DNA of 64,000 bases, taken from NCBI GenBank assembly GCA_026770705.1, contig JANJGN010000011.1, forward strand, positions 106,516,001 to 106,580,000, in the 5' to 3' direction. How positions within the stretch are numbered: position 1 is the first letter of the stretch; each line of letters begins with the position of its first letter. Below, piece after piece: positions 9,750 through 58,395 of this stretch. The stretch comes from Isurus oxyrinchus. Lineage: Eukaryota. The notes under the pieces are model-generated. The model saw nothing but the letters and a program-made list of their open reading frames with translations. It did no database searches and was not told the origin of the DNA. The position numbers and the translations under genes are program-made.

Positions 9750-11100
9750 TTTTCCACCTCCAAAATCCATCAACTTCACCTTTGCAGGTGTTGCTATGGG
9801 TACCTGTGTAACCTACATACCCAGTTATGCCGAATGTTTTGTGAGATATATGGAACATTTATTATTCCAAGGCAACTCAGGCCTCCTCACTTATCTCTTT
9901 TTCCAGTACATTGATGACTGTATCAGTACCGCCTCCTGCACTTGCCATGAACTGGAAAATTTAATTGACTTTATTTCCAATATCTACCCTTCTCTCTCCA
10001 TCACGGGTCCATCTCCGACTCTTCCCTTCCTCGATTTCTCTGTCTCAATTTCTGGAGATTTGGAGGTTTGTAATGATCATCAATAGATAACTTACCTACT
10101 CTTACCATTGTCGCAACTACATTTTCTCACACTCTGCTTCCTGTAAGGACTCCATTCCATTCTCCCAGTTTCTCTGTCTCTGTCACATCTGTTCCATTGA
10201 TGCAATCTGCTTCATTTTTAAAAATGTATTCATGGGATGTGGGCATCACTGGCCAGGCCAGCATTTATTACCTATCCCTAATGGCCCTTGAGAAGGTGAT
10301 GGTGAACTGCCTTCTTAAACTTCTGCAGTCCATGTGGTGTGCATACACCCTCAGTGCTGTTCGGGAGGGAGTTCCAGGATTTTGATCCAGCGACAGTGAA
10401 GATATAGTTCCAAGTTAGGATGGTATGTGGCTTGGAGGGAAACTTCCAAGTGGTAGCATTCCCATGCATCTGCTGCCCTTGCACATCCAACACGTCTTCC
10501 CTTTTGCTCAACCGAGGATTCCCGTCCAGTATGGTGGACAGGGTCCTCCAACGTGTCCAATCCATTTCATGCATCTTTGCTCTCATCCCTCCCAGAACCA
10601 CTAAACACACCTTCCTTTTCCCTCCCCTTTGAGCATTCCGTAGGTACTGGTCCCTCCACAACACCCTAGTCCATTCCTCAGTCACCACTAACGCCCTCCT
10701 CCCTTCCCTATGGCACCTTTTGGTGCAAGCACTTGCCCTTTCACCGGTTCCCTTCCCCCTCATTTAAAGCCCCAGACACTTCTTCGAATTGAAACAATGA
10801 TTTACTTGTACTTCTTCCAGTTTAGTTTACTGCATTCGCTGCTCATGAAGTGGTCTCCTCTACAGTGGGTAGATTTGATGACCGCTTTGTGGAACTCCTC
10901 CATTCAGTACAAAAGCACTACCCCGAGCTTCTGGTTGCTTGTCATTTTAATTCTCCATCTTGCTCCCACTCTGAGCTTTCTGTCCATGGCCTGCTACAGT
11001 GTTCCAATGAAGCTGAATGCAAGCTTGAGGAACAGCACTTTATCTTTAGACTCAGCACTCTGCAGCCTTCTGGACTCAACATTGAATTCAACAACTTTAG
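9750..11100 (+). mobile_element. Penelope-like element fragment (RT plus GIY-YIG endonuclease)
   Basis: GVAMGT, FFQYIDDC, LPFLDFSVSISG; C-terminus VACHFNSPSCSHS..KLEEQHFIFRLSTLQPSGLNIEFNNFR. Confidence 0.85.
10215..10485 (-). mobile_element. CR1-like LINE 3' end inserted in the Penelope fragment
   Basis: Ends ..GSKSWNSLPNS..KKAVHHHLLKGH; same family as 43150-45873. Confidence 0.8.
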
Positions 11101-11103
11101 ATC

Positions 11104-14100
11104 CAGCAGGTCTGGCAGCATCTGTGGAGAGAGAAACAAAGTAAATGGTTCGAGTCTGTATGACTCTTCTTCAGAGCTAAAGAGAAGTAGAAATGTGATG
11201 GATATTATGCTGTTTAAGAGAGAGTGGAGCAGGTGGAGCAAAATAGGTCAGGGATAGGTGAGAGCTTAGGAGAGACTGACAAAGATGTCATGCACACAAG
11301 TCAAAGGGAGTGTTAATGGTCATGGTAAAGGTTAAGGAAGGTGATGACAGTGGCATAAAGGTAAGATAGCAGATGTGTTAATACCAGAACAAGGGTCAGC
11401 GCTCTGTGAAAGAACAACATCGAAAAAAGTGACAGATGGCCCCTGTGGGTGGGGGCGTGGGGTGGGTTGGGGGGGGTGGGGCGGGGGAGGTGGTGGTGGT
11501 GGTGGGCGCGTGGTACAATAAAAGGGAAAAGATAAAAGAAAAGGATAAAAAATAAAAATAAATAAAAATAAATTAAGTAAATAAAGTAATAAATAAATAA
11601 ATATTTTTTTTTTAAATTGGATTTAAAAAGCGATAAAGATGGAGGAGACAGTTCATGGTCTGAAGTTGTTGAACTCAATGTTAAGACCGGAAGGCTGTAA
11701 AGCTCCCATTTGGAAGATGAGGTGCTGTTCCTCCAGTTTGCGTTGAGCTTCACTGGAACATTGCAGCAGGCCAAGGACAGACATGTGGGCATGAGAGCAG
11801 GGTGGTGTGTTGAAATGGCAAGTGATAGGAAGGTCTGGGTCATGCTTGCGGACTGAGCAAAGGTCTTCCACAAAGCTATCACCAAGTCTGTGTTTAGTCT
11901 CTCCAGTGTAGAGGAGAAGTTGAAATCCCCCACTATTACATAATAGGGTAGTAATAGTGGGGGATTTCAACTTCCCCAACATTAACTGGGTTAGTCATAG
12001 TGTGATAGGTTTAGAGGGAGCAGAATTCTTAAAATGCATCCAAGAGAGCTTTTAAGCAAGTACATAGAAGGTCCTACAAGACAGGGGGCGGTCCTGGACT
12101 TAATTTTAGGGAATGAAGCCGAGCAAGTGGTGGAGGAATCCGCAGGGGAGTATTTTTCAGATAGTGATCACAACTCCATTAGATTCAAGGTTGTTATGGA
12201 AAAGGACAAGGATGGGCCAGAAATCAGAGTTCTAATTTGAGGCAAGGCTGATTTTAATAAGATCAGATAGATTTGGCCAGTGTGGACTGGGAGCAGCTAC
12301 TTTTAGGTAAATCTACATCAGAGCAGTGGGACTCATTCAAGAAGGAAACAGGAAGAGTACTGGGCCAACATATTCCAGTAAAGATAAAGAGTGGGACCAA
12401 CAAATCCAGGGAACCCTAGATGTCGAGGGATATACAGGATTGGATAAAAAGAAAAAGGGAGGCTTAAGGCAGATACCGAGGGCTCAAAACAGCAGAAACC
12501 TTAGAAGAGTATAGAATATGTAGGGGGGAACTTAAAAAGGAAATTAGGAGAGCAAAAGGGGGGCATGAAAAGACATTGGCAGGTAAAATGAAGGAAAATC
12601 CAATGTTATTTTACAAATATTTTAAGAGTAAGAGGATAACTAGGGAAAGAGTAGGGCCTATTAAGGACCACATGGTAATTTGTGTGTGGAACTGGAAGAC
12701 GTAGGTAGGGTTCTAAATGAATACTTTGTGTCAGTGTTCACAAGTGAGAGGGACAATGTAGGTGTGGAAATCAGGCAGAAGGACTGTGATATAATTAAAG
12801 AAATTAGCATAGAAAGGGAGGAGGTTCGAAGTGGTCTGGCAGGCTTAAAAGTAGATAATTCTCCAGACCTGGATAAAATGTATCCCAGGCTGTTGAGTGA
12901 GACAAGGAAGGAGATAGCAGGGGCACTGGGCAATAAGTTTCAATACATCTCTGGCCACAGGAGAGGTGCCAGATGACTGGGAGACAACCAATGTGGTACT
13001 ATTATTCAAGAAGGGAGGAAGGGATAAACCAAGGAACTACAGGCCAGTCAGTCTTACCTTAGTGGTGGAGAAACTATTGGAAGCAAGTCTGAGGGACAGA
13101 ATTAATCTACACTTGGAGAGCCAGGGATTAATCAAGGGCAGTCAGCATGGTTTTGTTAAGGGGAGGTCAAGTCTGACCAATTTGATTGAATTTTTCGAAG
13201 AGGTGACCAGGTGTGTAGATGAGGGCAATGTATTTGATGACGTCTACTTGGACTTCAGCAAGGCTTTTGATAAGGTCCCACATGGGATATTGATAACAAA
13301 GGTAAGAGCCCATGGGATCCAAAGCAATTTGGCAAATTGGATCCAGAATTGGCTGAGTGGCAGGAAGCAGAGGGTGATGGTCGAGGGGTGCTTTTGTGGC
13401 TGGACGTCTGTGCCCAGTGGGGTTCCACAGGAATCAGTGTTGGGTACCTTGCTGTTTGTGGTATATATATTAATGATTTAGACTTGAATGAGGAGGGTTG
13501 GTCAGTAAGGTTGTGGATGACACGACAGTTGGTGGGGGTGGTAAATAGTGAGGAGGATAGCCTGAGGTTACAGGACGATATAAACAGGCTGGTCAGATGG
13601 GCTGATCTGTGGCAAATGGAATTTAATCCACATAAGTATGAGGTGATGCACTTGGGCAAGACAAACAACGCATGGGAATACATGACAAATGGTAAGACTC
13701 TGGGAAGTACCAAGGATCAGAGAGACCTTGGTGTGCATGTCCACCAGTCCCTTAAGGTAGTGCAACAGGTAGATAAGGTGGTTAAGAAGACATATGGGAT
13801 ACTTGCCTTTATTAGCCGAGGCATGGAATATAAGAGCAGGAAGGTTATGCTGGAACTGTATAAAACGTTGGTTAGGCCACAGCTAGAGTATTCCGTGCAG
13901 TTCTGGAATCCGCATTATAGGAAGGATGTGATTGCACAAGAGAGAGTGCAGAGGAGATTTACCAGGATGTTGCCTGGGCTGGAGAGTTTTAGTTATGAGG
14001 AGAGATTGGATAACTGGGATTATTTTCCTTGGAGCTGAGGAGATTGAGGGGGACATGACTGAGGTGTATAAAATTATGAGGGGCATAGATAGGGTAGACA

Positions 14101-15320
14101 GGAAGGAACTTTTCCCCTTGGTAGAGAGATCAATAACCAGGGGGCATAGATGTAAGGTAAGGGGCAGGAGGTTTAGAGGGGATGTGATGAAGAATTTTTT
14201 CACCCAGAGGTTGGTGGGAACTCACTGCCTGAAAGGGTGGGAGAGGCAGAAACCTCATAACATTTAAGAAGTATTTGGGTGTGCACTTGCGATGACATGG
14301 CATACAAGGCTATGGGCCTAGCACTGGAAAATGGGATTAGAATAATTAGGTATTTGTTTGACTGGCACAGAACTCGATAGGCCGAAGGGCCTTTTTCTGT
14401 GCTGTAGACCTCTATGACTCTATGGCTCTATGAGACCGCATTGGGAGCAGCAAATACAGTGGACTAAATTGAAGGAGGTGCATGTGAAGCACCACCTCAC
14501 CTGAAAGGAGTGTTTGGGGCCTTGGACAGTGTGGAGGGAGGAGATCAAGGGGCAAGCGTTGTTCCTTCTGCAATTGCATAGGCAGGTGTCGTGGGAAGGG
14601 GGTGAGGAATTGGGGTTGATGGAGGAGTGGACCAGGGTGTCACAGAGGGAGTGGTCCCTACAGAATGCTGACAGGGGAGGTGAGGGGAAGATGTGTTTGA
14701 TATGGCATCATGCTGGATTTGGCAGAAGTGGAGAAGGATGATACTTTGAATGTGGACGCTGGTTGGGTGAAAAGCGAGGACAGAGGTACCCTATCTGGGA
14801 GGGAGGGGGAATGGGTGAGGGCAGAGTTGCGGGAGATGGGCCGGACACAGTTGAGAGCCCTGTCAACCAGAGTGGGGGGATCTCTCAGTTAAGGAAAAAG
14901 GAAGACATGTCAGAAGTGTCATTTTGGAAGGTAGCATCATCAGGGCAGATGCGACGGAGGCAGGGGAACTGGAAGAATGGTGTCCTTACAGGAAGCAGGC
15001 CGTAAGGAACTATAATCAAGGTAGCTGTGGAAGTCTGTGGGCCTGTAATGAATATTGGTAGATAGCCTATCACCAGAAATGGAGACAGAGAGGTCAAGGA
15101 AGGAATGGGAAGTGTCAGAGATGGATCCACCCTCTCCAACCCCTCTTAAACAGTATAATATCCATCACATTCCTACTTCTCTTTAGCTCTGAAGAACTCA
15201 TATGGACTCAAAACATTAATTCTCTTTCTCTCTCACAGATGCTGCCAGACCTGCTGAATTTTTCCAGCATTTTCTGTTTTTATTTCAGATTTCAAGCATC
15301 CGCAGTATTTTGCTTTTAAC
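11104..15320 (-). mobile_element. Penelope-like element with inverted terminal pseudo-LTR, split by a CR1 insertion
   Basis: ORF remnants 15138-14432 and 11915-11653 (LLYTGETKHRLGDSF..LNIEFNNFRP) join across the CR1; 11104-11225 is an inverted copy of about 15140-15260. Confidence 0.85.
11918..14431 (+). mobile_element. 5'-truncated CR1 LINE (ORF2 from APE end through RT), frameshifted
   Basis: GDFNFPNINW, PTRQGAVLDLIL, NYRPVSLT, QHGFVKGRS, YLDFSKAFDKVPH, LVRPQLEYSVQFW; (ctctatga)n tail; GAGA duplicated at both junctions. Confidence 0.92.
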
Positions 15321-15476
15321 TTTAGATCCATCTTGTTCTATGTGTTTTTCTTCCCCTCCTATTTTGTTTTGCTGGGTCGGTCTTCATCTTGTTTCTTTCT
15401 TTGCCACTTGATATTGCAAAGATTGTTTTAATGTAGCCATTCACACTTTGTTTGGACCAACCCTTGTTTCTTTATT

Positions 15477-16043: not shown

Positions 16044-16183
16044 ATTATATTCATTGTCACTCTCTTTGGATGTTGCATCATGAAATCTTTTGTTACTTAA
16101 TCCATCCTGGCCCCCACCCTATCACAGTCCTTTTCCTTTCTGACTCTCCCCCATTCTACTGGCTAACAATCCTATCTTTCCTC

Positions 16184-23780: not shown

Positions 23781-24718
23781 GATAAAAGCAAAATACAGCA
23801 GATGCTAGAAACCTGAAACAAAAGCAGAAAATGCTGGAAAAACTCAGCAGGTCTAACAGCGTCTGTGGAGAGAAAAACAAGAGGCCTGAGTTTTACCTTT
23901 GGCATGTGGGCGAGCGTCCAACACTCCAGAATGTAATATGACACACGAAGACGTCAGGCGTGCGTCCCGTCATTGTACACTTGCACGATATTTTGTTCAG
24001 CGGGCACACGCTGGAGTCAGCTGCACGTCCACCAATAATTGAAAGGCCTATTAAGGCCATTAAGGACCTTATTAACTTGAAAGTTACTCTGCCTATCCAA
24101 CCTAACGGTTGGCGGGCAGGTGAAAAGGCCAAGCAGTCTTTACATTTTTAGGAAACCTCATCCATGCGCGGAATAAGGTTTCCTAAAGCTAATACTAATT
24201 AAATAAAACCTTTATCTTGACATCAAAAACATGTCCCATCTCACGTGGCACAGTCACATGAGGGGACATATTTTATTCAATTTTTACTGTATTTATTAAT
24301 TTTTTTTCAAAAGCGCTTCAATATCCTTGAGGCAGCTCTGTGCCTCAGGGAGACTGAAGTGCTTTTTCATGCACATGCACAAACTGTGTGCCAGGCCCGT
24401 TCTCCCTCCTCCCCCACCCACAAAGGCAATGCTCCACGCTGCCGCTCACATTCCATGCTGGATGGGCCTTAATTGGCTGGCCCATGTGAAATTGCGGTGC
24501 GGAGCTGATTGCGGTCGGCGGTCGGCTCCCCAACTGTTCCCTCCGAGCACGCTCGACCGAAGGCAAAATTCAGGCCAGAGTTAATGTTTCGAGTCGGTAT
24601 GACTGTTCTTCATCTGAAGAAGAGTCATGCGGACTTGGAGCATTAACTCTTTTTTTTCTTTCCACAGATGCTGTTTGAGCTGCTGAGTTTTTTTCTGCAT
24701 TTTCTGTTCTTGTTTCAG
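23781..24718. mobile_element. fold-back Penelope pseudo-LTR element with two back-to-back degenerate hammerhead motifs
   Basis: Left arm aaaagcaaaatac..gtctgtggagag is inverted relative to ttccacagatgctg..ttttctgttcttgtttcag; hammerhead remnants at 24577-24650. Confidence 0.7.
23883..24576. mobile_element. Harbinger-type MITE
   Basis: TIR ggcctgagtttt / aaaattcaggcc; TSD AGA. Confidence 0.88.
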
Positions 24719-31399: not shown

Positions 31400-31680
31400 G
31401 AGCTTGTTTTATATATCTACTTTCATGATCTCAGGTTGAATCAGAATACTTTAGTGCCATTAAGTAGTTTTGAATTGCTGTCACCGTTGTAATGTCGGGA
31501 AACACAGCTGCAAATTTATGTGCAACAAAGTTCCACCATTAGCAAAGTGAGAATAACCAAATTATTTGTTTCAGTGATATTGGTTGAGGGTTAATATTAA
31601 CCAAGACACTGAGAACATCCCTGTTTTTTTTTCAAATAGTGCATTGGAATCCTTTACATCCAGCTTGAGAGAGGAAACTG
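31400..31680 (-). mobile_element. Deu-domain SINE
   Basis: Reverse complement of the Deu core (ggttgagggttaatatt..tcaaatagtgc..tttacatcc) with an L2-like tail. Confidence 0.65.
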
Positions 31681-33205: not shown

Positions 33206-34697
33206 ACAAAGTCTTCCCAGCCTATGCAGAGATATCAGCCTCCAATTCCTTTTTAATTGTTGAGATATGAAAATATGAAATCTCTCATACTCGTTGGCCT
33301 TTAAATCTGTCAGTCAGCCTTATGGAGATGAAATACACAGGAAGCCATCTGTGGAGCCACCTGTGATTCCTGACATTCTTGAATATGCAGACTTACAGCT
33401 CATGGGTGACTTAATGGGACTAATAAACTTGAGTAATTAATGGGACTTGGAGGCTGAAGTTTCCCCTAGTTAGCTTTAATTTAGAAGTCCGTTTGAAATG
33501 AATAATCTAGCAGTGAGGTCACATATCCTCAATAGGTGACGGTGATAATCAGTTTAAGCATGAGCACAGTTTAAAAGCATCACAAATCAAACCCTCCAAT
33601 GAAGAATTAACACTTGTGATTACAGTGAGCATGCCAACTTTTAATGATTATCAGAATGAAAAAGACAACTCTGACCAAAAATGTTCCATAAAATTATCCC
33701 TTTAGAACACTAAGGATTGTGGAAACTTCAATAGTTGGTTAGTTTTGTAACATCATTCGAATATATGCAAATGAGTACCCTGGCACATACTGTGATTTAT
33801 AATTTGAAGCATTCATAGTACAGCATAATTTTTAGATAATCGGTATAATAGACTAAAATTTAGTTCAATTTTATGTGTATTATTTCTGACTGTTCTGAAT
33901 AAATCTGTATTGGAATTGATTTCAATGTAATTACTTTGCATGCAGACAAATGCAAACATAGTTCCTGCTGTGCTATTCAGTGAAGGGCAGCTTTTTTGAA
34001 TTAAAGGATTCCAATGCACTATTTGAAGAAAAAACAGGGATGTTCTCAGTGTCTTGGTCAATATTAACCCTCAACCCCCCCAACCCCCCTACCGCCCCAC
34101 CATAAATTAGCTTGCTGGCCGTTACCCAGTGGGATCTCTAGGCCTCATTTTGGCAGTCTGCAGCAGCCTTAAGTCTAAATTAGGCCAGGCCTTTATATGA
34201 CACCAGCCTCTTCACAGCTGGGACAGGCCAACAGGTGTACTCAGCCAATGGATAACATGGGCCCTTCTAATTTTTAAAGTAGTGGGAACCTCCCTACTTT
34301 GGCTGAATAACGAATGCAAGAGGCAGCTTCCACATGCAAGAGTTAGAAATCTAACCTTATTCTAGAAGTGATTGGGATTAGTCACAGTTACCAAATCTTT
34401 GGGTTGCTGGAGTGTACATGAGAAATGTTCGAGGATACGCATTGCATACTCTAAATAAATAGGATAACAAACCATGAATGGTTCATTGTAAAAAGTATAT
34501 ATATTAACAAGTTGAAGCAACAGCTAAAATGCCAACAAGCGTTTTTTCAATAATTTAAACCGTGGGGAAGGTAAAATTCTACCGTGGCATGAGTGGAAAA
34601 TGGATATCAGTTGATTGGCCACCTGAGATACCCTCACCCAATTTTTATTTCCATTGATTTTCACCCCAGCAATTATCTGAAACCAGAATACAATAGG

Positions 34698-34878
34698 CAG
34701 GGTTAATGTTTCAAGTCCAATATGATTCATCTTCAGAACACCTGGTTCTGAAGAGGAGTCATGTTGGACTCGAAACATTAACTCTGTTTCTCCACAGATG
34801 CTGTCAGATGTGCTGAGTTTTTCCAGTATTTTTCTGTTTTTATTTTGGATTTCCAGCATCGGCAGTATTTTGCTTTAT
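34698..34878. mobile_element. Penelope pseudo-LTR with back-to-back hammerhead motifs
   Basis: 34702-34739 is an inverted copy of 34745-34782; plus-strand motif GGTT-CTGAAGA-G-GAGTC-atgttg-GACTC-GAAA-CATT-AACT. Confidence 0.72.
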
Positions 34879-36190
34879 TAATGTCGGGAGGGGTTTAATT
34901 GAGAGTCGTTATTGATTGGGTGATATGGACAAGTGTCAAACCCATCCAATGTTAGTAGTTTGAAGCCCAAGCTATTTTAAATCCCATGCTTAGTATGAAT
35001 CCCAGCTGGCAAATGCCAGCCTGAATTGGCAGAAGGAGGCAAAAGGCAATCAAAATATGGGCCCTGGAGGCTGCCCATTGACAACAATGTAAGTTATGCC
35101 ACAGTTGGCATATGGTTGTGGGTGGGAAAAGTAGTCCATGGCAGCAGAATCCAAAAATGCCCTTGCTGGACCTGGAAGAGCACAGCTCCTCTTCTTGGGT
35201 CTGCTAAGTGAAGTTATTGTCTTACCTTAGAGAGCACTTCCTCCTCTTCCTCAAATGATGGCTAACTGATTGCTTTTGGGTGCAAATGATGTCAAACAAT
35301 TTCAATATTTTCTGGCAGAGAGCACCTCCTCTTCTTCGTCTTCAGATTTTACTGAAGCTGCATGCTCACTCTTAGCACCCGACTTGATAGAATGTTAAAA
35401 TCAGGATTTTAATGACATTTATAGAACTGCCAATTAGTATGTTTTAATGAAGGTGCCTGCTTGAGTCAGGTAGGCACATTGGCTGCCTAAAGAAAGGGCT
35501 TGGTTAGGATGGTGGTGTATGGGAATCAAGTGGGAACAGAGCAGCAAGTCTTTACAGAGCTATTTTAACTGTAAACGTTACCAGGCGGAGTGGTTTAACA
35601 TTCCCCACAAAGTACCTTTCCCAGAGTCTAATGATGACCTCTTTACATCAGCACAGGCCTCTGCACCCAAAACATTCTATCACAATGCAGCGACCCGGAA
35701 ATACAATTGAACTGAAGGGCGTATATCTGCCACTCAGGTGTAGCCTTTGAAGCGAGAGGGTCAGGCTCTCTGAAGAATCCTTCTCCTAATCAAAGCCTTT
35801 CTTGTCCAAATGTAACACAGAGAAAACAACCACCTTCTGTGAACAAAATAACTGCTGACTGGACAGTCATAAGCAACATAAGCATTGCTAAATTTTGACA
35901 AACTATCCACAGTAACATTCAAACCAAGTTTGATGTTAGAGTTTCTCTGTGTGCCATCCCAGCGTGCAGCAACTCCTCTTCCAATATAAAAGCCTGCTGT
36001 GTTACATTACAGATCAAGATAAAAGGAGTTGTTTCAGAAAAAATGCTGCATTTAAAACAACACTCCAAAAAGATGGACTAGTGATAATTCCATTTAAAAA
36101 GATTTGTCGTTTGAATAACGGATTAATCCATTCACCTTTAAAGAAAATGTAATCACTAACTGACAGCTTACAAGACAATGGTAAAAAGGA

Positions 36191-36402
36191 AACAAAAACA
36201 GAATTACCTGGAAAAACTCAGCAGGTCTGGCAGCATCAGCGGAGAAGAAAAGAGTTGACGTTTCGAGTCCTCATGACCCTTCAACAGAACAACAACAACT
36301 CTTTTCTTCTCCGCCGATGCTGCCAGACACCTGCTGAGTTTTTCCAGGTAATTCTGTTTTTGTTTTGGATTTCCAGCATCCGCAATTTTTTTGCTTTTAT
36401 CT
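36191..36402. mobile_element. 212-bp fold-back Penelope-derived mini-element with hammerhead motif
   Basis: Perfect 14-bp TSD aatggtaaaaagga (36177-36190, 36403-36416); about 67-bp inverted arms; minus-strand hammerhead at 36252-36292. Confidence 0.85.
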
Positions 36403-37394
36403 AATGGTAAAAAGGACTTGAACAACTTACTACAGGAATCTCCAACTTTGTTCCCCTGCAGCACCCCATCCGCCCCACCACAAGGTGAAGGAAATGAAAG
36501 TTGAATTTTAAATTAAGCAACAGACCCAATTCAATCCCTTACAAATCAACTTCCTGCAGCTGGAGAGAATTTCATGGCCACATGGGGCATCTACACTTGA
36601 AATGCTAATCCATTTATTTTTGGCCCTCTGCCTTAACTAAATGTCAGAAATAAGCCAGATTAAGTGTAATCTTGATGGCCTTTAATGTAAAGATTAAAAG
36701 GGTTCCATCTGCAGCCAATATCCTGCTTAGGTTACATTAGCCCAACAGATAAGCCTTTGAAAGTAATAAATGTGCAACTTTAGACACAGTAAGACAGCTA
36801 TTAAGTGCAGATATACAAAAACAAGGAAAACCACATTATGGTTATATTCAAACACTGCTCACTGGAAAAGCAATGTTCATGTCCAATATTTTCTCATTCT
36901 GATGAACAGTGATTGACCCAAAATATCAACACTGTTCCTCTCTCCACAAATGCTATCTGACTTGCAGAGTGTTTCCAGCTTTTTCTGTTTTTGCTTCTGT
37001 AAATGTTGCCTTTCACTATTCTGTTGTACATTTTGCTTCCCACCAAACAGCATGGCTGGTAATTTATTAGAAGGCCTGTTTGCGGGCACAGCTACTTAAA
37101 GCCATCAAAGGACCAACCATGAATCATGTTGCCAGAAAAGATTAAATAGGCTGAATGTAGAGAAATATTTCCAAAAAGCCTCAGGTCAGACTGCAGAACT
37201 GGTGCAAGAAGTATTTAAATACAATCCTTTAGAATCCTAACCAGAGAAAATAAAATGAAAAAAGAAACATAACAATCTAATATAGATCATGCCACAAATG
37301 GAAACAGAATTTTAGCATTTAAAACCAGATAAAAATCATGGAAGTAACTTTGCTAGCAGGTTGATAATTACTCCCAGTGTTTTTGAAACATCAC

Positions 37395-43149: not shown

Positions 43150-45873
43150 ATTGACACCATCATCACCAACCCTGGGTATGTCTTGTCCCATCGGGCAGGA
43201 CAGGCCCAGTAGAGGTGGCGGCACAGTGGTATACAGTTGGGAGGGTGTTGCCCTGGGAGTCCTCAACATTGATTCCAGACCCCATGAAGTTTCATGACAT
43301 CAGGTCAAACATGGACAAGGAAACCTCCTGTTGGTTACCACATACCGCCCTCCCTCAGCTGATGAATCAGTGTTCCTCCATGTTGAACACCACTTGGAGG
43401 AATCATAGAGAGTGGGAAGGGCGCAGAATGTACTCTGGGTGGGGGACTTCAGTGGTTTGGTAACACCACGACTGACCGAGCTGGTCAAGTCTTAAAGAAC
43501 ATAGTTGCTAGACCAGATCTGTGGCAGGTGGTGAGGGAACCAACAAGAAGGAAAAACATACTTGACCTCATCCTCACCAACCTGCCCGCCATAGATGCAT
43601 CTGCCCATGATAGTATCGGTAGGAGTGACCACTGCACAGTTGTTTGGGAGACAAAGTCCCACCTTCGCATTGAGGATACCCTCTATCGTGTTGTATGGAA
43701 TTACCACAGGGCTGAATGGGATAGATTTTGCACTGGTCCAACAACTCAAGACTGGGCATCCATGAGGTGTTGTGGGCCACCAGCAGCAGCAGAAATGTAC
43801 TTGAACAAAATCTGTAACCTCATGGCTCGGCATATCCCCCACTCTACCATTACCATCAAGCCAGGGGATCAACCTTGGTTCAATGAAAAGTGCGGGAGGA
43901 CATGCCAGGAACAGCACCAGGCATACCTAACAATGAGGGGTCAACCTGGTGAAGCTATAAAACAGAACTACCTGCATGCCAAACAGCATAAACAGCAAGT
44001 GATAGACAGGGCTAAGCGATCCCACAGCCAACGGATCAGATCTAAGCTCTGCAGTCCTGCCACATCCAGTCATGAACAGTGGTGGACAATAAAACAACTG
44101 GAGGAGGAAGCTCCATAAATAGCCCCATCCTCAATAATGGGGGAGCCCAGCACATCAGAGCAAAATACAAAGCTGAAGCATATGTTACAATCTTCAGTCA
44201 GAAGTCCAAAGTGGATGATCAATCTCGGCCTCCTCTGGAGGTCCCCAGCATCACAGATGTTAGTCTTCAGCCAATTAGATTCACTCCACGTGATATCAGG
44301 AAATGGCTGAAGGTACTGGATACTGCAAGGCCTATGGGCCTGACAGTATTCCAGTGATAGTACTGAAGACTTGTGATCTGGAAGTTGCTGCGCCCATAGC
44401 CAAGCTGTTCCAGTACAGCTATAACACTGGCATCTACCCAGCTATGTAGAAAATTATTTAGGTATGTCCTGTACATAAAAAGCAGGACAAATCCAACCCG
44501 GCCAATTACCGCCCCATCAGTCTACTCTCCTTCAACAGTAAAGTAATGGAAGGAGTCATCAACAGTGCTATTAAGCGGCACTTGCTAAGCAATAACCTGC
44601 TCATTGATGCTCAGTTTGGGTTCTGCCAGGTCCACTCAGCTTCTGACCTCTTACAGCCTTAGTTCAAACATAGACAAAAGATCTCAACTCCCGAGGTGAG
44701 GTAAGAGTGACTGCCCTTGACATCAAGGCAGCATTTGACTTTGCTTGGCATCAAGGAACCCTAGCAAAACTTGAGTCAACAGGAATCAGAGGGAAAACTC
44801 GCCAATGGTTGGATTCGTACCTAGCACAATGGAAAATGGTTGTAGTTGTTGGAGGTCAGTCATCTCAGCTTCAGGACATCACTGCAGGATTTCCTCAGGG
44901 TATTATCTCAGCCCAACCCATCTTCAGCTGCTTCATCAATGACCTTCTTTCAATCATAACGTCAGAAGTGGGGATGTTCGCTGATGATTGCACAATGTTC
45001 AGCACCTTTCACAATTCCTCAGATACAGAAGCTGTCCGTGTCCAAATGCAGCAAGACCTGGACAATATCTAGGCATGTGCTGACAAGTAGCAAGTAACAT
45101 TCGTGCCGCACAAGTGTCAGGCAATGACCATGTCTAACAAGAGAGAATCCAACCATTGCTCCTTGATGTTCAATGGCATTACCATCACTGAATTCCCCAC
45201 TATCAACATCCTGGGGATTACCATTGACCAGAAACTGAACTGAACTTGTCATATAAATACTGTGGCTACAAGAGCAGGTCGAGACAAGGAATCCTGCGAC
45301 GAATCGCTCACCTCCTGACTCCCCAAAGCCTGTCCGCCACCTAAAAGGCACAAGTCAGGAGTGTGATGGAATACTCCCCACTTGCCTAAATGAGTGCAGC
45401 TCCCACAACGCTCAAGAAGCTTGACACCGTCCAGGACAAAGCAGCCTGCTTCATTGGCATTACATCCACAAACATTCACTCCCTTCACCACCCACGCACA
45501 GTAGCAGCAGTGGGTACCATCTACAAGATGCACTGCAGGACTTCACCAAGGCACCTTAGACAGCACTTTCCATACCCACAACCACTACGATCGAGAATGA
45601 CTGGGGCAGCAGGTAGATGGCTACACCACCACCTGGAAGTTCCCCTCCAAGTCACTCACCATCCTGACTTGGAAATATATCGCTGTTTCTTCACTGTCGC
45701 TGGGTCAAAATCCTGGAATTTCCTTTCTAACAACATTGTGGGTGTACCTACACCACATGGACTGCAGCAGTTCAAGAAGGCTGCTCACCACCACCTTCTC
45801 AAGGGAAACTAGGGATGGGCAATAAATGCTGTCCCAGCCAGTAAAGCCCACATCCATGAGTTAATAAAATAAA
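43150..45873 (+). mobile_element. 5'-truncated CR1-like (CR1/L2 group) LINE, ORF2 with stops
   Basis: APE PTRRKNILDLILTN..GRSDH; RT NYRPISLL, ALDIKAAFD, VGMFADDC; end KKAAHHHLLKGN and A-rich tail. Confidence 0.9.
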
Positions 45874-46246
45874 TTGAATTTCTCAATCCACGGGTAAGAA
45901 AATACACGCACATGCACAAATTCATTGTTCGCAGGCTACTTAGAGAAACACCTTCAAAGCGTCTGTGACATGAAATAGATGGACCTGGGGCTTTTGTTGT
46001 CTAACAACTCTTATATTCCTATGTACAATGTAGAGCCTAAAACATTAGTTAGATTAGCAAAGTGCTGGAATGGCAAATGCATTAACAATTCTGTACACCA
46101 ACTCATTATTTCAATTTTACTTGCACAGAATTCTATTAGGATCAAATAAGTTGCCAAATTAATTAACTTGTAATATACAGCAGCTTTCATGTCATTGTGT
46201 ATTAAATGTAATAAAATGTGCTGTTGCAACAACTATCCACTTAATT

Positions 46247-46380
46247 CTGTTCTGCTGAAGAGCCATAAGGCCTCGAAACGTTAACTGTGCTCCTCTCCAC
46301 AGATGCTGTCAGACCTGCTGAGTCTTTCCAGGTATTTTTGTTTTTGTTTTGGATTTCCAGTATCTGCAGTTTTTTGCTTT
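46247..46380 (+). mobile_element. 134-bp Penelope pseudo-LTR/hammerhead mini-insertion
   Basis: TSD tatcca[c/a]ttaatt (46234-46246, 46381-46393); ctgctga-a-gagcc..gcctc-gaaacgttaac followed by the family tail. Confidence 0.75.
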
Positions 46381-48129
46381 TATCCAATTAATTAGCCTAA
46401 CCCATTTTTTAACAGTGCTTTTTGAAAACTGTTTGTTTCACATTTTAGGAGTTCATTAATTTCATCTCTAATAGCGTAGTGGATTTTGTGCATTCATTAA
46501 GGAAGCCTATAATGGGAAGTGGACTTCAATATTTCACATTGAAGAGGCTACATCATCGTTCTATCAAATAATGAGCATCTTGAGTGGTACTGGGAGCCTG
46601 TCACTCCCCACAGAGTAATATTTGAATTTACAGATTCAATTTAGTACGAATTCATCACCTTCAGGAAAGAAAGGACAATGGGAAAAAATCAAAGGACAAA
46701 CTGAGAGAAAAATGTCTAATGTGTCACTGTGCCCATATTGTGATACAAAACAAGTAAGCACAAAAAAAAACAATGTGGAAATATAAATCACCTGTTACTT
46801 TCTTCACAAAAAGTGCCTGACCTGCTGAGTGTTTGCAGCATTTTCTGTTTTAATTTCGGATCTCTAGCATCCACAGTAGTTTTTTCTAGTCTTCTGAAGC
46901 TTGAGCTAAAAAAGTGTCATATATTTGGACAAATCTAACATGTTTTAATGTTAGTGGATTAATTTGGTTATATATAGAACAAGAGCCATTTTAAATGAAT
47001 GGTTAGAGATGTCATATGAGACAGGTACAGGAAACGAACGAGAAAACAAAATTAGGCACTATATGCTTTTGTTTTTCTTAAGTTCTGTACTGATAAATGA
47101 TTATTCCTTTTGGAAGAATGTCAAGATATTAAAAAAAAGCTTTGGGAGTGTAAGCTATTTCCGTGCTTTAACACTTTTTTACTTAAGACCTTGGGGTTGG
47201 GATCGAGTCAGGCCTGCTATCTCAGTTTGGAGGTGGCCATGAAGGTGGGCAAGTGCTGAGTTAGCTGTTTGGAAGGCCCTTCTTGGTTCTCTGAGTCCTA
47301 TGCTCAGTTTTATAAAAGGCTGTTAGGCTCTCTTGCCCTCATGCCTCACCCGACCCCCCCCCCCCACCTCCCATACACCTTTATAATCCCCCCCATCCAA
47401 CTCCTATGCCCTCTCATTTCCCCCATGCCACCTCCATAGCCACTCATTCAGTATCCACTATGGGCAGACTTCAGAAAACATTTGAAGATGACCACTTCTA
47501 TTCCTATGTTTCTATATGTAGAAGGCTCTCACTCATTCACATTTGAAATCAGAAAAAAAACCTAATTTATGAAATTCATTCAATAATTTTTAATCCCCTC
47601 GTTATCTGTTTATAAAAGAAAACTTCTATTCAGTAACTGCACTGTGGGAGTGCTTCGAGTTGGTTCCCAATTCCATATTCCTATGTCCCCTTTCGCCATC
47701 ATTCCTTTCCCAGGCCAGTGACACGTCACTTCTCTTTCTCTGTGGAAGCACAGCTTGGAGTCAAGCAGTGGTGCCTTGTAAGATCATGGCTACACTATCT
47801 CTTTTCCAGATTAAGGCAGCAGAAATCTTGGCATCCATAATTTTTATGGCCATTGTGAGGACATTTAGTGAATGATCAGTGTGCCATAATTGAAATTCCA
47901 CAATGAAAGGCATCTTCTCAATAGCTTGTGCCATCAATCCACAAACGCTTGTACTAGATTCTAGATTTCTCCATCCTGTACAACTAGTGTGCCTGATGGA
48001 TCAGCCAGTTGCTGCAGACTTTCTATCATTCTCATCGCTGCTTGGAGAGGATTGCACCCTCCAATGCAGATCCATCTCTCTCATGCTCAATTGTGATTCA
48101 GAAGGTGAAGTCCCTTCTAATCTGTTTTT

Positions 48130-49241: not shown

Positions 49242-50435
49242 GGGCAGGACTTTTGCCCCAATATGAGGCAGGGAACAAGGATGGGTGGGCTTGGGATTTT
49301 GAACCCGTGTGCCTGTATACTGGCATCATCTGGCCCCAGGTCCATTTTAGGGAAGGCCAGATCGCGGGCAAAATAGTTACTCACCCGTGGCTGAAAGACC
49401 AGGGGAGGGGCCAGGAATTCTGAGGCGAGTGACTCACTTCCTGACTCCCCAAAGCCTGTCCACCATCTACAAGGCACAAGTCAGGAGTGTGATGGAATAC
49501 TCTCCATTTGCCTGGATGAGTGCAGCTCCAATAATACACAAGGGGCTCGATACCATCCAGGACAAAGCAGCCTGCTCGATTAATACCTCATCCTTCAACA
49601 TCCACTCACTCCACCACTTACGCACAGTGGCAGCAGTGTGTACCTCTACAAGCTTCACTGCAGCAACTCACCAAGGCTTCTTTGACAGGACCTTCCAAAT
49701 CAGAAACCTCTACCACTGTGAAGAACAAGGGCAGCAGATGCATGGGAACACCACACACCATCCTGATTTGGAACTATATCACCATTCCTTCACTGTAGGT
49801 GAGTCAAAAACATGGAACTCTGTACTTAACAGCATTGTGGGTGTACCTACACCACATGGACTACTTGCAATTCAAGAAGGCAACTTACTACCACCTTCCC
49901 AAGACCAATTAAGGATCAGCAATAAAAATGCTGGCCTAGCCAGTGGCGACCATATCCCATGAAAGAATAAAAGTGCTGGGTAGCAAGTAAAGATCATTAA
50001 AAGGCCAATTCAGGTCACAGATCGGAGGCTGAAATGAATTATCCAGTCAGCGTGTCCTCCCTCAGCAGCATCAACAGCATTGCAGATACCTGCAGGTGGC
50101 AGGTCTGGTGACCAGTGTTCCAGGATGCTTTTGAGGGGCCCCTCCTTGGCTGCAGCTATGGCTGTATCTGTGGCTGCAGGCTGCCCTGAGGGTCTGGCAG
50201 CTGTGGCCATTTTTTACTTCAAATGTGTTGAGAGGACACCTTGAAATGGAAGCACCCTCTCTCTCCCTTAACTGCAATGGCAAGCTGCAATCTTTCTGTG
50301 CCAGAGGGCCTCTAGCCACGAATTGGCCAATTCATGCAAAATTGATTTTGGATGACCACTCCTGACACAGTGTGGTGTTGTACCCACCATTAGACACCAA
50401 TGAGAGAGTTCCAACCCAAATGCAAAATTCTGCCC
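49242..50435. mobile_element. Harbinger-type MITE with a CR1-like LINE 3' fragment (about 49415-49972, plus strand) inside
   Basis: TIR gggcaggacttt / aaaattctgccc; TSD CAA; LINE peptide YKAQVRSVMEYSPFAWM. Confidence 0.8.
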
Positions 50436-53439: not shown

Positions 53440-55678
53440 TGACATAATTTTGATCTTAACTTTTACCAGCATGCCGGGAAATTAAGAAAGTGCTGAAGAA
53501 GGGATTTTTTTTGTCAATCTTTTAAAATTAAACATGCTGAACTTATAAGCAAGCAGAGAGACACAATACAAATGCTATCAAGGGAAATGCCAGAGATAAT
53601 ACAGCAAACCAGAATCTCCAGAGCTTTAAGTTATGAAGATGAGATCTTGAATCGGGTTGAGATAAGCCACTAAGTTTTCCAGTAACACCCAAACATCTTT
53701 TTTTGGAAAATTGCCCAAAATGAGCTTCACGTAATGAAAAATTACTGGAAAAAGAAAGATGGATAACTTTCTGGTGGATTCAAATCATGGTTTAAACAAA
53801 GGCCTGTTAGAATCACATCTCTTTAAACAGGATTTTTCTTTTTAAAATATGAAACGATGTTGCAGCATTTGGACATTTGGAGGCTGCCCAAGAACTTTTT
53901 TTTAAAAGGGTCATAAGTTCATCTTGGAACTGTAAACAAACAGGCCTCTTCCAAGCAATCACCTAAGCTACTTGAGAAGGATTTGTTTGTTTATTTTGAA
54001 CTGCAAAGCACTTTAATTAATGAAAAGGTGTAGGACAAATAGGCAATTACATTGCAGAGGCAAACCTTAAGTTTGAACCTGTGGTTTTGCTTTCAGTCTT
54101 GTTGGGGAAAGGCTCAGAATAGAAAGCTACCCTGACCAGCTCTCTCCCCCTCTCTGCTTTGTGAAACCGTGTGATTCTCAACATGTAGCCAAATAATCCT
54201 CATCTGAGTGTAGTTTGCATAATTTTGGACTTGCTAGCTGAGACAGGAACAATTTGTCCAGCTACACTCTCCTCCACACTGAAGCATCGTTGGTGAATTC
54301 CCCGACATTTACTGGGAACAGCAGCACGTCTTAACATGAGGGAACTTCAGACCAACAGCACCAAACCTCTGTGAATTTTAATTTTTTCCACTTTCTAAGG
54401 AAGTTTTTTTTTCATCTGTCTGACTCTGCACAGACTAACCGTGTGCCTTCTGTTTGTGTATGTGTGCCTGTGGGCAGGAATTTGCTGTCGGCGAGTGGGG
54501 CAGGGCCCGCTCGCCGATACATAAAATAATGCGCGGTGACGTCGGGGGAATTCCCAACGTCACTGCACAGGATTTAAATTTTCAGGAAGGCAGGATTTAC
54601 ATGAGAACAAATTTGAAACAATTACAGGAAAATTAAAATGATTACAGAAAATGATTACAGATGCAACAGATTTAGAAAATTAAAGATAACAAAAGCACAA
54701 CAGTTGACTTGTTACTTTTCTTCAAGCAAGTGAATGTTTCACTGATAACTAGCATCAAAATGCTCAAATACATCATTTTACTTCCGACAAATTAATTGCG
54801 TTGCTAATATCTGGCTCGATTATGCTATTAACTCTGGTCATACAATCACCTGAAGCAAAAGCAGCTGTGTGCCCGCTGACCTGTCAATGGCCAACTGAGG
54901 CAATTGACAGGATCAATTAAGCAATTGAAGGACCTGCCTGTCCAACCTTAAGGTTGGCGGGCATGCTAGGAGCTCTGGTGGCAACCAGAAAAAACATGAA
55001 ACCTCATCCACAGGCGGGATGAGGCTTCATGTAGGCTTTAAAATTTTTTTAATAAAGATTGTGAAAAGATTATGGACATTGTCACATGAGGGGACATGTA
55101 AGGGAAAATTTTCTACTTTTATCTTTTTTACATGTAGAGCCAATCTCCCTGAGGCTGCACTTAGCCTCAGGGAGATGAGTGCACACTTTCGTGCACACGC
55201 ACAAAAATGCGCACTCTCGATTTTAGGCATTCCCCCCGCCCACACAGGGAGTACATAGCTGCGGACGTCACATTGGGTGGGCCTTAATTGGCCTGCCCAC
55301 GTAAAATGACACTGCGCCTCCGTTTGGGGGTGCCAATCAGAAGTGCGCCCGCCCATCAACTTCCCCCTGGACGGGGGGAAATTTCTGCCCCGTATGTGCG
55401 TTGGGGAAGTTTAAAAGGATTAGTTAGTTGTATTTCCAGTTTACAATCGTGTGTTGGCCAGTTCTTGAAACTTGTTTAAAAATTTTGTTTTATAATAAAT
55501 CAATCATTCTGGTTTTATTGAAAGAAGCCTGGTCAGGGTCTCTTTTCTTCTGAGTACTAGATGTATAGGTAAACAATTGGCCATTTTAGTGAGAAAATTA
55601 AACATCTAAATTAATGGTACGTTTTGTGGAGTAGTGGGGCTTTATGACCTGTGCACTCCTCCCATCCCGGTCCTAAAA
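53440..55678 (+). mobile_element. solo LTR candidate hosting a MITE
   Basis: LTR-like composition, AATAAA at about 55495, end gtggagtagtgggg..gtgcactcctcccatcccggtcctaaaa; boundaries uncertain. Confidence 0.35.
54472..55390. mobile_element. Harbinger-type MITE with a 262-bp foreign insert
   Basis: TIR gggcaggaattt / aaatttctgccc; TSD TGT/CGT; colinear with 5214-5892 except for the insert. Confidence 0.85.
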
Positions 55679-56179
55679 GGCCACAGAATATAATTGGGTA
55701 CTGCGCTTTTAAAAAAAAGTTTCATAGTATGGTACAGCTTGTATATATAATAAACTAACCCCATTCTTTGAAAAAAAATGTATGAGAGGTTGAAGACATC
55801 AAAGACCTACACTGTATTTGAAGGAAGAAATTCCTGCAAATTGTCAGAAGGAGGTCTCAAAGAGAAAGATAGAGCCTTACTGATCATCAGCAGAAGAGTC
55901 TATAACCACAGGAGCCACTTCAGGTGATTGTATGACCAGAGTTAATAGCATAATCGAGCCAGATATTAGCAACGCAATTAATTTGTCGGAAGTAAAATGA
56001 TGTATTTGAGCATTTTGATGCTAGTTATCAGTGAAACATTCACTTGCTTGAAGAAAAGTAACAAGTCAACTGTTGTGCTTTTGTTATCTTTAATTTTCTA
56101 AATCTGTTGCATCTGTAATCATTTTCTGTAATCATTTTAATTTTCCTGTAATTGTTTCAAATTTGTTCTCATGTAAATC
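54594..56179. repeat. perfect 262-bp inverted repeat (54594-54855 vs 55918-56179)
   Basis: gatttacatgagaac...tcacctgaag is the reverse complement of cttcaggtga...gttctcatgtaaatc; no mismatch seen by eye. Confidence 0.95.
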
Positions 56180-56329: not shown

Positions 56330-58395
56330 TTTGACCTTGCACTTCTGACCTCATATCCTTTCCACCAAATATATTACCCATCTCCACCTGTACCTAATAC
56401 TATCTATTGCTGAAATCTTCATGTATTCCTTCATTCTCTCCTGACATGACTGTTCCAATGTCCTGCTGGATGACCTGAGATCTTCCACTTTCCTTAAACT
56501 TAAACTCATCCAAAACTCTGCTGCCCATAAACTAAATCATACCAAATTCTGTTCATTCATCACTGCTGTATTCACCGACCTATACCGATTCCTGGTTCAG
56601 CAACATGTTTAAAAATTCTCATCCTTGGTTTCAAATAGCTCCATGGCCTCACCCCATCCCATCTTTATAACCTCCTTCAGCTCGACAACCCTCCAAGACC
56701 TCAGCCTTATTTTTTATTTGTTGATGGGATGTGGGTCTTACTGTCAAGATCAGCATTTATTGCCCATCCTTAACTGCCCTTGAGAAAGTGGTGGTGAGCT
56801 GCCTTCCTGAACCACTGTAGTCGTCTGGTGCAAGTACATCCACAGTGTTGTTAGGTAGGGAGTTCCGGGGTTTTGACCCAGTGACAATTAAGGAATGGTG
56901 ATATAGTTCCAAATCAGCTTGTTGTGTGATTTGGAAGGGACCTTGCAGAGTAGTGGTGTTCCCATGCACCTATTGCCCTTGTCCTTCCAAGTGGTAGAGG
57001 TGCCAATTAAGCTTTGTTCTGGATGGTGTCAAGCTCCTTGAGTGTTGTTGGAGCTGCCCTCATCCAGGCAAATGGGGAACATTCCATTATACTCTCGATT
57101 TATGCCTTGTGGATAGTGGACTAAGTTTTGGGATGAGGAGGTGATTTATTTGGCTCAGAAATTCAAGCCTCTGACCTGCCCCTTGTAGCCACAGTATTTA
57201 TGTTGCTTGTCCAGTAAACTTTCTGGTTAATGGGGACCCCCAGGATGCGGATGGTGGGAGATTCAGTGACGGTAATGCCATTGAATATCCAGGGAGGTTA
57301 TTAGATTTACTTTTGTTGGAAGTCATCATTCCCTGGTACATGCACGGTGCAAGTGTTACCTAGCAAGTATTAGCCCAAGCCTGAATGCTGGCCAACATGC
57401 AAACATGGATTACTTCATTATCTGTACTATATAAATGCAAGTTGTTGTTCAGCCAGCATTCTCACTTCTGACCTTATGATGAAGGGAAGGTCATTGATGT
57501 CGCAGTTGAAGATGTTTGGGCCTAGGACACTACCTGGGGAACTTCTGCATCAATGTCCTGGAATGAGATGGTTGACCTCCAACAATCGCAATCATCCTCC
57601 TTTTTGCTAGGTATGATTCCAACCAATGGAGAGTTTTACCCGATTCTCATTGATTTCAATTTTTCTAGGGCTGCTTGATGCCACACTCAGTCAAGTGCCA
57701 CCTTGATACCAAGGGCAACACTCTCACCTCACCTCTGGAATTCACTCCTAGCCCATGTTTGGGGGCCAAGGTTGTAATGAGGACTGGAGCTGAGGGGTCC
57801 TGACAGAACTGGTGAACAGTTTATTGGTGGGTACATACATTAATAGCACTGTCAAGGATAGCTTCGATTGCTTGGTTGATAATTGAGAGTAGACTATGGC
57901 ATGGCAATTGTCCAGATTGGATTTGTCCTGTTTTTTACGAACAAGGTGTATCTGGACAATTTCCCGAGATGTTGAGTAGATATCAGTATTGTAGCTGTAC
58001 CAAGGCAGCTCGGCTAGTGCTGGAGCACAAGTATTTATCACTAAAGTTGGGTGTTGTTGGGACCCGCTGCCTTTGCTGCATCCAGTGCATTCAACCATTT
58101 CTTGATACCAAATGGACTGAATTAAATGAGCTGAATGCTGACATCTCCAATAGTAGTAGCTTCAGGAGGAGGTTGAGGTGGATCATGCACTTGGCACTTC
58201 TGATTGATGATGGTCGCAAATACTTCAGCCTTATCTTTTGCGCTCATGTTCTGGGCTTCACCATCATCTATCTGATCTGATCTAATATCTCCTTATGTGG
58301 TTCAGTGTCACATTTTGTTTGAAATGGCACTCCTGTGATTGTCTTGGGACATTCTCCTACTTTAAAGGCACTATATAAATGCAAGTTGTTATTGC
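56330..58395 (+). mobile_element. L2 LINE 3' fragment split by a CR1-like LINE
   Basis: ctcatccaaaactctgctgccc, attctcatccttggtttcaaa..ctccatggcctcacccc; tail aaaggcactatataaatgcaagttgtt. Confidence 0.7.
56710..58265 (-). mobile_element. decayed CR1-like LINE
   Basis: Same family as 43150-45873 (tail cagcatttattgcccatcct; KQDKSNLDNC). Confidence 0.8.

Follow-up and report, generated by a model that had tools for sequence, protein, structure and literature searches.

Does the 212-bp fold-back insert described here, which carries a hammerhead motif between two inverted arms, represent a discrete mobile unit with ends set by ribozyme cleavage, as an earlier note on this DNA had proposed, or an insertion of a Penelope-like element (PLE) of the usual kind? 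The insert lies in a stretch of 64 kb that was analysed as a whole (hereafter, the window), and the coordinates of its parts and of the related loci are collected in Table 1. The insert is a PLE insertion and not a retrozyme, and it is a real feature of an already known kind. It consists of two 5'-truncated PLE ends (pLTRs) joined head to head, and very probably arose in one ordinary, dead-on-arrival insertion event. The argument starts from what can be read directly, namely the anatomy of the insert, its one-sided 37-bp tail, its link to copies coding for the reverse transcriptase (RT) and the GIY-YIG endonuclease, and the variety of junctions among its sister copies.

The two copies of the target-site duplication (TSD) are AT-rich and identical at all 14 positions, and this 14-mer is present at those two positions alone within the 64-kb window (chance about 1e-8 per given place). 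Between them lie 212 bp (36191-36402), in which neither a coding sequence nor a tandem copy between the arms was found. A single substitution and a single 2-nt indel distinguish the inverted arms (36190-36262 and 36291-36365). Relative to the sense of the hammerhead, the left arm is an antisense and the right arm a sense copy of the pLTR, and therefore the two form a head-to-head pair. The PLE tail is present on the right arm only, which is thereby 37 bp longer at its 3' end. The description in the earlier note, of a perfect 14-bp TSD around a 212-bp insert with near-perfect inverted arms, was confirmed in these respects, the TSD being a unique pair in the window. Its caution that the aac repeat makes the junction ambiguous was also justified, as the plus arm starts with AAC TCT (36297) inside the (AAC)4 run. 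Peaks of loose 3' ends of contigs were located at both termini (36190/36191, 36366, 36391 and 36402). No joint of an empty site was present among the listed contig joints; contigs drop rare variants, so this has no bearing on polymorphism. An origin as a MITE or DNA transposon was rejected, as both arms consist of PLE sequence and, at the right end, the inverted repeat is not terminal.

Table 1. Parts of the insert and related loci in the window; junctions are numbered with the cut base as +1
Feature	Position	Strand	Description
Left TSD	36177-36190	+	14 bp, AT-rich; its final A doubles as the last base of the inverted arm
Inverted tail-less pLTR copy	36191-36290	-	In sense orientation begins with the G of GTTCTG (36290), which opens stem I and marks the hammerhead 5' edge; ends at the inner terminus (36190/36191)
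Minimal type I hammerhead motif	36254-36290	-	A6U core; uncleaved in this copy; predicted not to fold as a monomer
Head-to-head junction (AAC)4	36288-36299	+	One AAC closes the inverted arm, one opens the direct arm, 6-9 nt surplus; AAC/GTT is hammerhead stem I
Direct pLTR copy	36297-36365	+	Starts at the base homologous to the predicted cut; 2-nt insertion not in the other arm
PLE tail	36366-36402	+	37 bp, one arm only
Right TSD	36403-36416	+	14/14 match to the left TSD
Head-to-head locus (212-bp insert)	36177-36416		-33 joined to +1
Head-to-head locus	34698-34876		-33 joined to -33 across a 5-nt spacer
Head-to-head locus	24576-24716		About -30 joined to -31
Related head-to-head locus	14429-15321	.	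Inverted arm with RT thumb, cysteine linker and start of GIY-YIG (minus, 15125 to 14429) plus direct hammerhead-plus-tail arm (15126-15321); RT-coding inverted arm joined to a direct arm starting near -91
Related PLE copy	11104-11974	-	GIY-YIG C-terminus, 3' UTR, then hammerhead and partial tail (to 11940), in one orientation; connects the motif to a coding PLE
Related solo pLTR	46234-46393 including TSD; copy 46247-46380	+	134 bp, 12/13 TSD, full tail, no inverted arm

To place the insert in its family, a profile of the end sequence was compared with the window. Nineteen matches were obtained at E values up to 1, of which 16 with E <1e-6 were kept and three weak ones (E 0.7-1.0) were left out; the reversed window, used as a control, gave 0 matches. 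The 16 arms of the family are distributed over 13 loci, and clear TSDs were found at two of these 13, at the insert (14/14) and at the solo copy (12/13). Pieces of RT were detected near the related PLE copy, at 9787-10246. Because Pfam analysis of four degenerate frames of the window gave 0 families, the PLE identity was taken from homologues. When the RT piece was used as a query, 4 of 60 candidate proteins matched, and the three that were scanned (P0001, P0003 and P0004) showed matches to both RVT_1 and GIY-YIG, the latter with scores slightly below the Pfam cutoff. The CxxxxCxxC linker of these homologues aligns to the copies in the window, with a degenerate equivalent at ~14560-14590. A linker of this type is tied to Neptune and Nematis in the description of PMC8557442, and by that description the coding neighbours of the insert point to the Neptune clade. 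The hammerhead-plus-tail end of the insert matches the end of elements that encode RT and GIY-YIG (the copy at 11104-11940 and the homologues). The claimed Penelope origin of the arms is therefore borne out, as the end sequence is shared with RT/GIY-YIG coding copies in the window, and the proposed mobilisation in trans by the PLE RT/GIY-YIG is supported, since the insert itself codes for nothing.

Several further details of these neighbours were observed. Within 9787-11974, a degenerate plus-strand PLE RT/EN abuts the tail of the minus-strand copy, tail to tail, at ~11102, and the 5' end of this minus-strand copy forms a 59-bp hairpin (11916-11974). The locus at 14429-15321 has an 8-bp palindrome at its junction, and its inverted arm terminates against another, LINE-like fragment. 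The solo pLTR starts ~3 nt upstream of the 5' edge of the hammerhead, and A6 of its core is changed to C.

On the minus strand, the hammerhead motif of the insert reads GTT CTGTTGA A GGGTC ATGAG GACTC GAAAC GTC/AAC, with a GUC triplet. Stem I has 3 bp, stem II has 5 bp with one G-U pair, and stem III is a loopless palindrome. In the core, CUGUUGA, A6 is changed to U, and the predicted cut (slash) is located between 36257 and 36256. The letters agree with the minus-strand motif, GUC triplet and A6 to U change that had been claimed. The left arm keeps this hammerhead uncleaved, still joined to its downstream sequence. Rfam at the gathering threshold gave 0 hammerhead matches in the 64-kb window. 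Structure prediction folded the minus-strand RNA of the insert into a long hairpin of -135 kcal/mol, in which the stem I pairs have a probability of 0.0 and those of stem II ~0.19, with C17 paired. A hammerhead-competent monomer fold would cost 12.1 kcal/mol when forced, and the folds of short pieces agree. Minimal hammerheads of PLEs are reported to be inactive as monomers and weakly active as dimers in vitro (PMC4209133), and A6C to reduce the Mg-dependent cleavage of a different hammerhead by orders of magnitude, A6U being outside that test (PMC7151607). The hammerhead of the insert is predicted to be catalytically inactive, and no further movement as a unit is predicted. The same altered core letters were found in one joint of organism B, whose contigs are described below. 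An exact-motif scan of viral contigs gave 0 matches, and a single match in a metagenome contig, which had no flanking similarity, was dropped as chance.

The insert was compared with known systems. It resembles the complex insertions of EN+ PLEs (PMC8557442; PMC3846280) in its inverted head-to-head pLTRs, one-sided 37-bp tail, TSD, AT-rich target and minimal pLTR hammerhead, but it is the shortest form, with no ORF or tandem copy between the arms, and its 14-bp TSD is longer than the 8-10 bp of the rotifer examples in PMC3846280. The neighbouring coding copies share with Neptune-clade PLEs, via their homologues, the RT, the C-terminal GIY-YIG and the CxxxxCxxC linker, while the insert itself has no coding sequence. 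With the PLE minimal hammerheads of Cervera and de la Pena 2014 (PMC4209133) it shares the type I topology, the lack of loop 3, the palindromic stem III and the extra base between A9 and G10.1; it differs from them in A6U and in a stem I that is buried in a long hairpin favouring another fold. In that report, such hammerheads are mostly single or in opposite-strand pairs, and are related to truncated PLEs. Metazoan non-LTR retrozymes, as described in PMC7229834 and 10.64898/2026.07.22.740005, are likewise non-coding, PLE-related and hammerhead-bearing, with a TSD of >4 bp. However, they consist of units repeated head to tail, each with its own hammerhead, and are processed to circular RNA, whereas the insert is an inverted pair with one minimal mutated motif.

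The question of a discrete unit was approached through the junctions. No two of the four head-to-head loci in the window share a junction, and the junction of the insert has no second locus within the window (1/13 loci). Contigs of four sequencing runs, two from one organism A sample and two from organism B, were placed at 88% likeness; 33,805-74,555 contigs were placed per run, nearly all of them on the element. Six RNA-labelled rows among the runs with matches, which had a share of only 0.05, were left out. Junctions were taken from the best 15 of 380 joints and the best 12 of 350 joints with insert (27 of ~730), one row in the tail being left out, and the other 26 represent 25 junction types. 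An arm at the 5' edge of the hammerhead is present in 13 of these 25 listed types and an arm at the cut base in 4, and the junction pair of the insert appears in 0 of the 25, a sample that is biased by the edges of the reference. At position 36295, T, the natural base, makes up 92-99% of the placed depth, against the A of the AAC run in the insert. The claimed discrete mobile unit is not supported by four loci with four junctions and by 0/25 among the listed contig types. Nor are ribozyme-defined ends, as the left arm is uncleaved, the 3' ends are at tail or tail-less sites and not at GUH, and the commonest 5' start (7/16) retains the whole ribozyme. A few other head-to-head junction types with joints in 36214-36305 (for example 36235 joined to 36305) reach depths of ~15-30 single-copy equivalents in both organisms; these multi-copy types are either junction hot spots or re-amplified fold-back forms.

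The 5' starts of the 16 arms were read by eye from the alignments. Seven start within ~4 nt of the hammerhead 5' edge, five between about -3 and +5 of the cut, and the remaining four run on into natural upstream sequence. A clean +1 start was found in the direct arm of the 212-bp insert alone; among the other four near-cut arms none is clearly at +1, and one retains 4 nt upstream of the cut. This clustering has a P of ~0.001-0.003 (9 loci, one start each, the insert being represented by its left arm, with positions read by eye and window widths chosen afterwards), which counts against plain random truncation. The contig peak at 36290 and the joints entering 36296-36305 sit at reference edges and are biased, and they were not used as proof of clustering. 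The earlier note had held that junctions scattered at random relative to the cleavage site would mark these copies as ordinary PLE insertions. The starts are not random, but in the main cluster the ribozyme is complete and uncleaved, contrary to what ends set by cleavage would look like. This cluster could reflect a transcript start, a splice boundary or a stop at RNA structure, and some 5' ends may be due in part to cleavage. A pyrimidine tract and AG lie directly before stem I in two of the three copies printed with natural upstream sequence (15162-15186 and 16158-16183). The upstream sequence of the 16183 type also resembles an initiator motif. The pyrimidine tract and AG are like a splice acceptor, as in the D. 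virilis case, where an intron end maps to helix I (PMC4209133). A second pyrimidine tract with CAG was also observed; it precedes an ATG just past the cut site, the frame of which is open through the tail in 3 of the 6 copies translated. In a literature search that was not aimed at this point alone and covered sources other than subscription papers, we found no study in which the 5' junctions of PLEs had been mapped relative to landmarks of the hammerhead.

The preferred reading, an ordinary PLE insertion, can be drawn as a mechanism by analogy with an anole PLE studied in vitro, whose protein cuts and extends both strands of AT-rich DNA, with two RT start sites bounding the tail (PMC11167929). 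The GIY-YIG endonuclease would introduce staggered nicks into an AT-rich site, one per strand and 14 bp apart. From the end on the top strand, reverse transcription would be primed at the inner start site, yielding the tail-less arm and running through the uncleaved hammerhead to its 5' edge, and the bottom-strand end would prime at the outer start site and yield the tailed arm. The heads of the two cDNAs may then have been joined via the 3-nt AAC/GTT complementarity of ribozyme stem I, and 6-9 nt of AAC may have been gained by slippage, during or after the insertion. As they share sequence, the arms must come from two pLTR templates or from two passes. The outcome has precedents in the published accounts: an inverted 5'-truncated copy with a 30-40 bp tail at one end is a PLE signature (PMC8557442; the tail also in PMC11167929), PMC3846280 describes PLE copies that meet head to head and have TSDs of 8-10 bp, and PMC4209133 reports pairs of hammerheads on opposite strands, separated by 100-700 bp.

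A refinement compatible with this insertion would let the ribozyme guide the junctions: the tailed arm would be copied from cleaved RNA, the tail-less arm from RNA that was left uncleaved and ended at the 5' edge, and the two cDNAs would be sealed through pairing of stem I. It is possible, though we place it on the unlikely side, and its component that the tailed arm was copied from cleaved RNA is, taken separately, rather unlikely. The start of the direct arm at the cut base, the clustering of the 16 arm starts, the share of 5'-edge arms among the listed junction types, and the tract and AG before stem I with its parallel in the D. virilis intron end (PMC4209133) are all in its favour. However, the inverted cDNA ends in AAC and the direct one in GTT, the two strands of stem I, so that joining by microhomology lands at the cut with or without RNA cleavage, and a junction at the cut site is no proof of cleavage. 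The near-cut arms other than that of the insert lack a clear +1 start, and the contig peaks at 36290 and 36297 are at biased reference edges. In addition, A6 is altered here, a change related to the crippling A6C of PMC7151607, and for the anole PLE cleavage is reported to be dispensable in vitro, with no RNA-seq reads beginning or ending at the cut (PMC11167929). A single primer offers the same junction without RNA cleavage. One cDNA reaching the hammerhead 5' edge would fold on stem I, prime itself and copy itself into the second arm, whose start would be set at the cut base by the fold. Self-priming has been proposed for palindromic PLE junctions (PMC3846280), and the short hairpins at 11916-11974, 24577-24650 and 34698-34786 fit it. 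On the other hand, the inverted arm is without the 37-bp tail that the direct arm has; the direct arm is therefore not a copy of it throughout, the tail must come from another template, and we consider this route quite unlikely.

The two remaining readings concern what the insert is as a whole. As a discrete, non-autonomous retrozyme or SINE-like family, its RNA would be set by hammerhead cleavage and moved in trans as a 212-nt fold-back unit. The insert is indeed non-coding, bounded by a TSD and provided with a hammerhead, non-LTR retrozymes are described as non-autonomous PLE derivatives, including one from a chondrichthyan (10.64898/2026.07.22.740005), and some other junction types have multi-copy contig depth. 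Against this, no tandem arrangement is present, and the motif occurs in 0 of the 11 tandem repeats of the window. Cutting between two type I hammerheads would release a unit running from cut to core, whereas here the core lies mid-element and uncleaved; the junction lacks a second locus in the window and is absent from the 25 listed contig types; and the ribozyme is predicted to misfold. Such a family is not supported and is very unlikely. The identification as a retrozyme was rejected for the lack of head-to-tail units, of a motif-bearing array, of cleavage-set ends and of a canonical hammerhead predicted to fold as a monomer, considering the absence of an Rfam match, A6U, the loopless stem III and the cost of 12.1 kcal/mol. 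An origin after insertion is highly improbable as well. By that account, either deletion or recombination removed the central part of a once longer inverted-repeat PLE insertion, or the hairpin was produced by the assembly. In its favour, head-to-head loci of greater length do occur (14429-15321), repair could have left the AAC run as a scar, and no contig crosses the interior of the hairpin. However, contigs of two organisms support both outer junctions, each arm has its own variant, which is not expected of a collapsed assembly, and the breakpoints are at hammerhead landmarks common to other arms.

The age of the insertion was estimated from the same contigs. In both organism B runs, the contig of the left flank crosses the TSD and reaches 24-26 nt into the arm, and that of the right flank begins 30 nt inside the tail. 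The listed differences between organism B and the window are confined to the flanks, with 8 substitutions over 745 bp plus a single insertion (~1% flank divergence). The contig overlaps of organism B fall just short of the 31-letter bridging rule, the contigs of organism A break at the same places, and the hairpin interior is spanned by no contig in either organism. Because both junctions occur in organism B, the insertion is most likely older than the divergence of A and B. One variant per arm was found relative to most of the depth placed there (36238; 36328-36330), ~1.5% per site. The earlier note had suggested looking for the insert in related species and had taken the clean TSD as a sign of recent insertion. 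Both outer junctions are present in organism B contigs, with the interior unspanned, and at such an age ~65-86% of 14-bp TSDs would still be perfect (~65% at ~1.5% per site). From these two results the equation of a perfect TSD with a recent event was rejected, and the insertion is probably not very recent.

The locus itself is an ordinary, old retrotransposon scar, and its value lies in the data around it. The in vivo role of PLE hammerheads is called unclear in PMC8557442, and cleavage was dispensable in vitro in PMC11167929. A broader idea, which we consider unlikely, is that PLE 5' ends are written by the hammerhead. The RT would stop at the ribozyme 5' edge, be it an RNA start, a splice acceptor or a structural stop, or at the cut site; stem I (GUU/AAC) would splint two oppositely primed cDNAs; and the locus would preserve a past event in which a cleaved and an uncleaved RNA were copied into a single target, AAC being reiterated in a telomerase-like manner. 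If this were true, the locus would be in vivo evidence for PLE hammerhead cleavage. The family is of high copy number (tens of thousands of contigs per run), with 5' ends clustered on ribozyme landmarks, and a genome-wide census of junctions could test if cleaved RNA is ever the template.

Other repeats were also observed in the window. An inverted repeat at 54594-54855 and 55918-56179 has arms of 262 bp that are 100% identical and ~1.06 kb apart, with no obvious TSD in the 15-bp flanks; it is either a young inversion or duplication, or an assembly artefact. Another, at 31582-31656 and 34002-34076, has 75-bp arms that are 97% identical and 2.3 kb apart. Degenerate LINE-type RT/endonuclease fragments were recognised from the list of ORFs and by self-comparison at 12918-14426, 43387-45869, 49351-49972 and 56710-58280, and by their motifs we take these to be CR1/L2-like.
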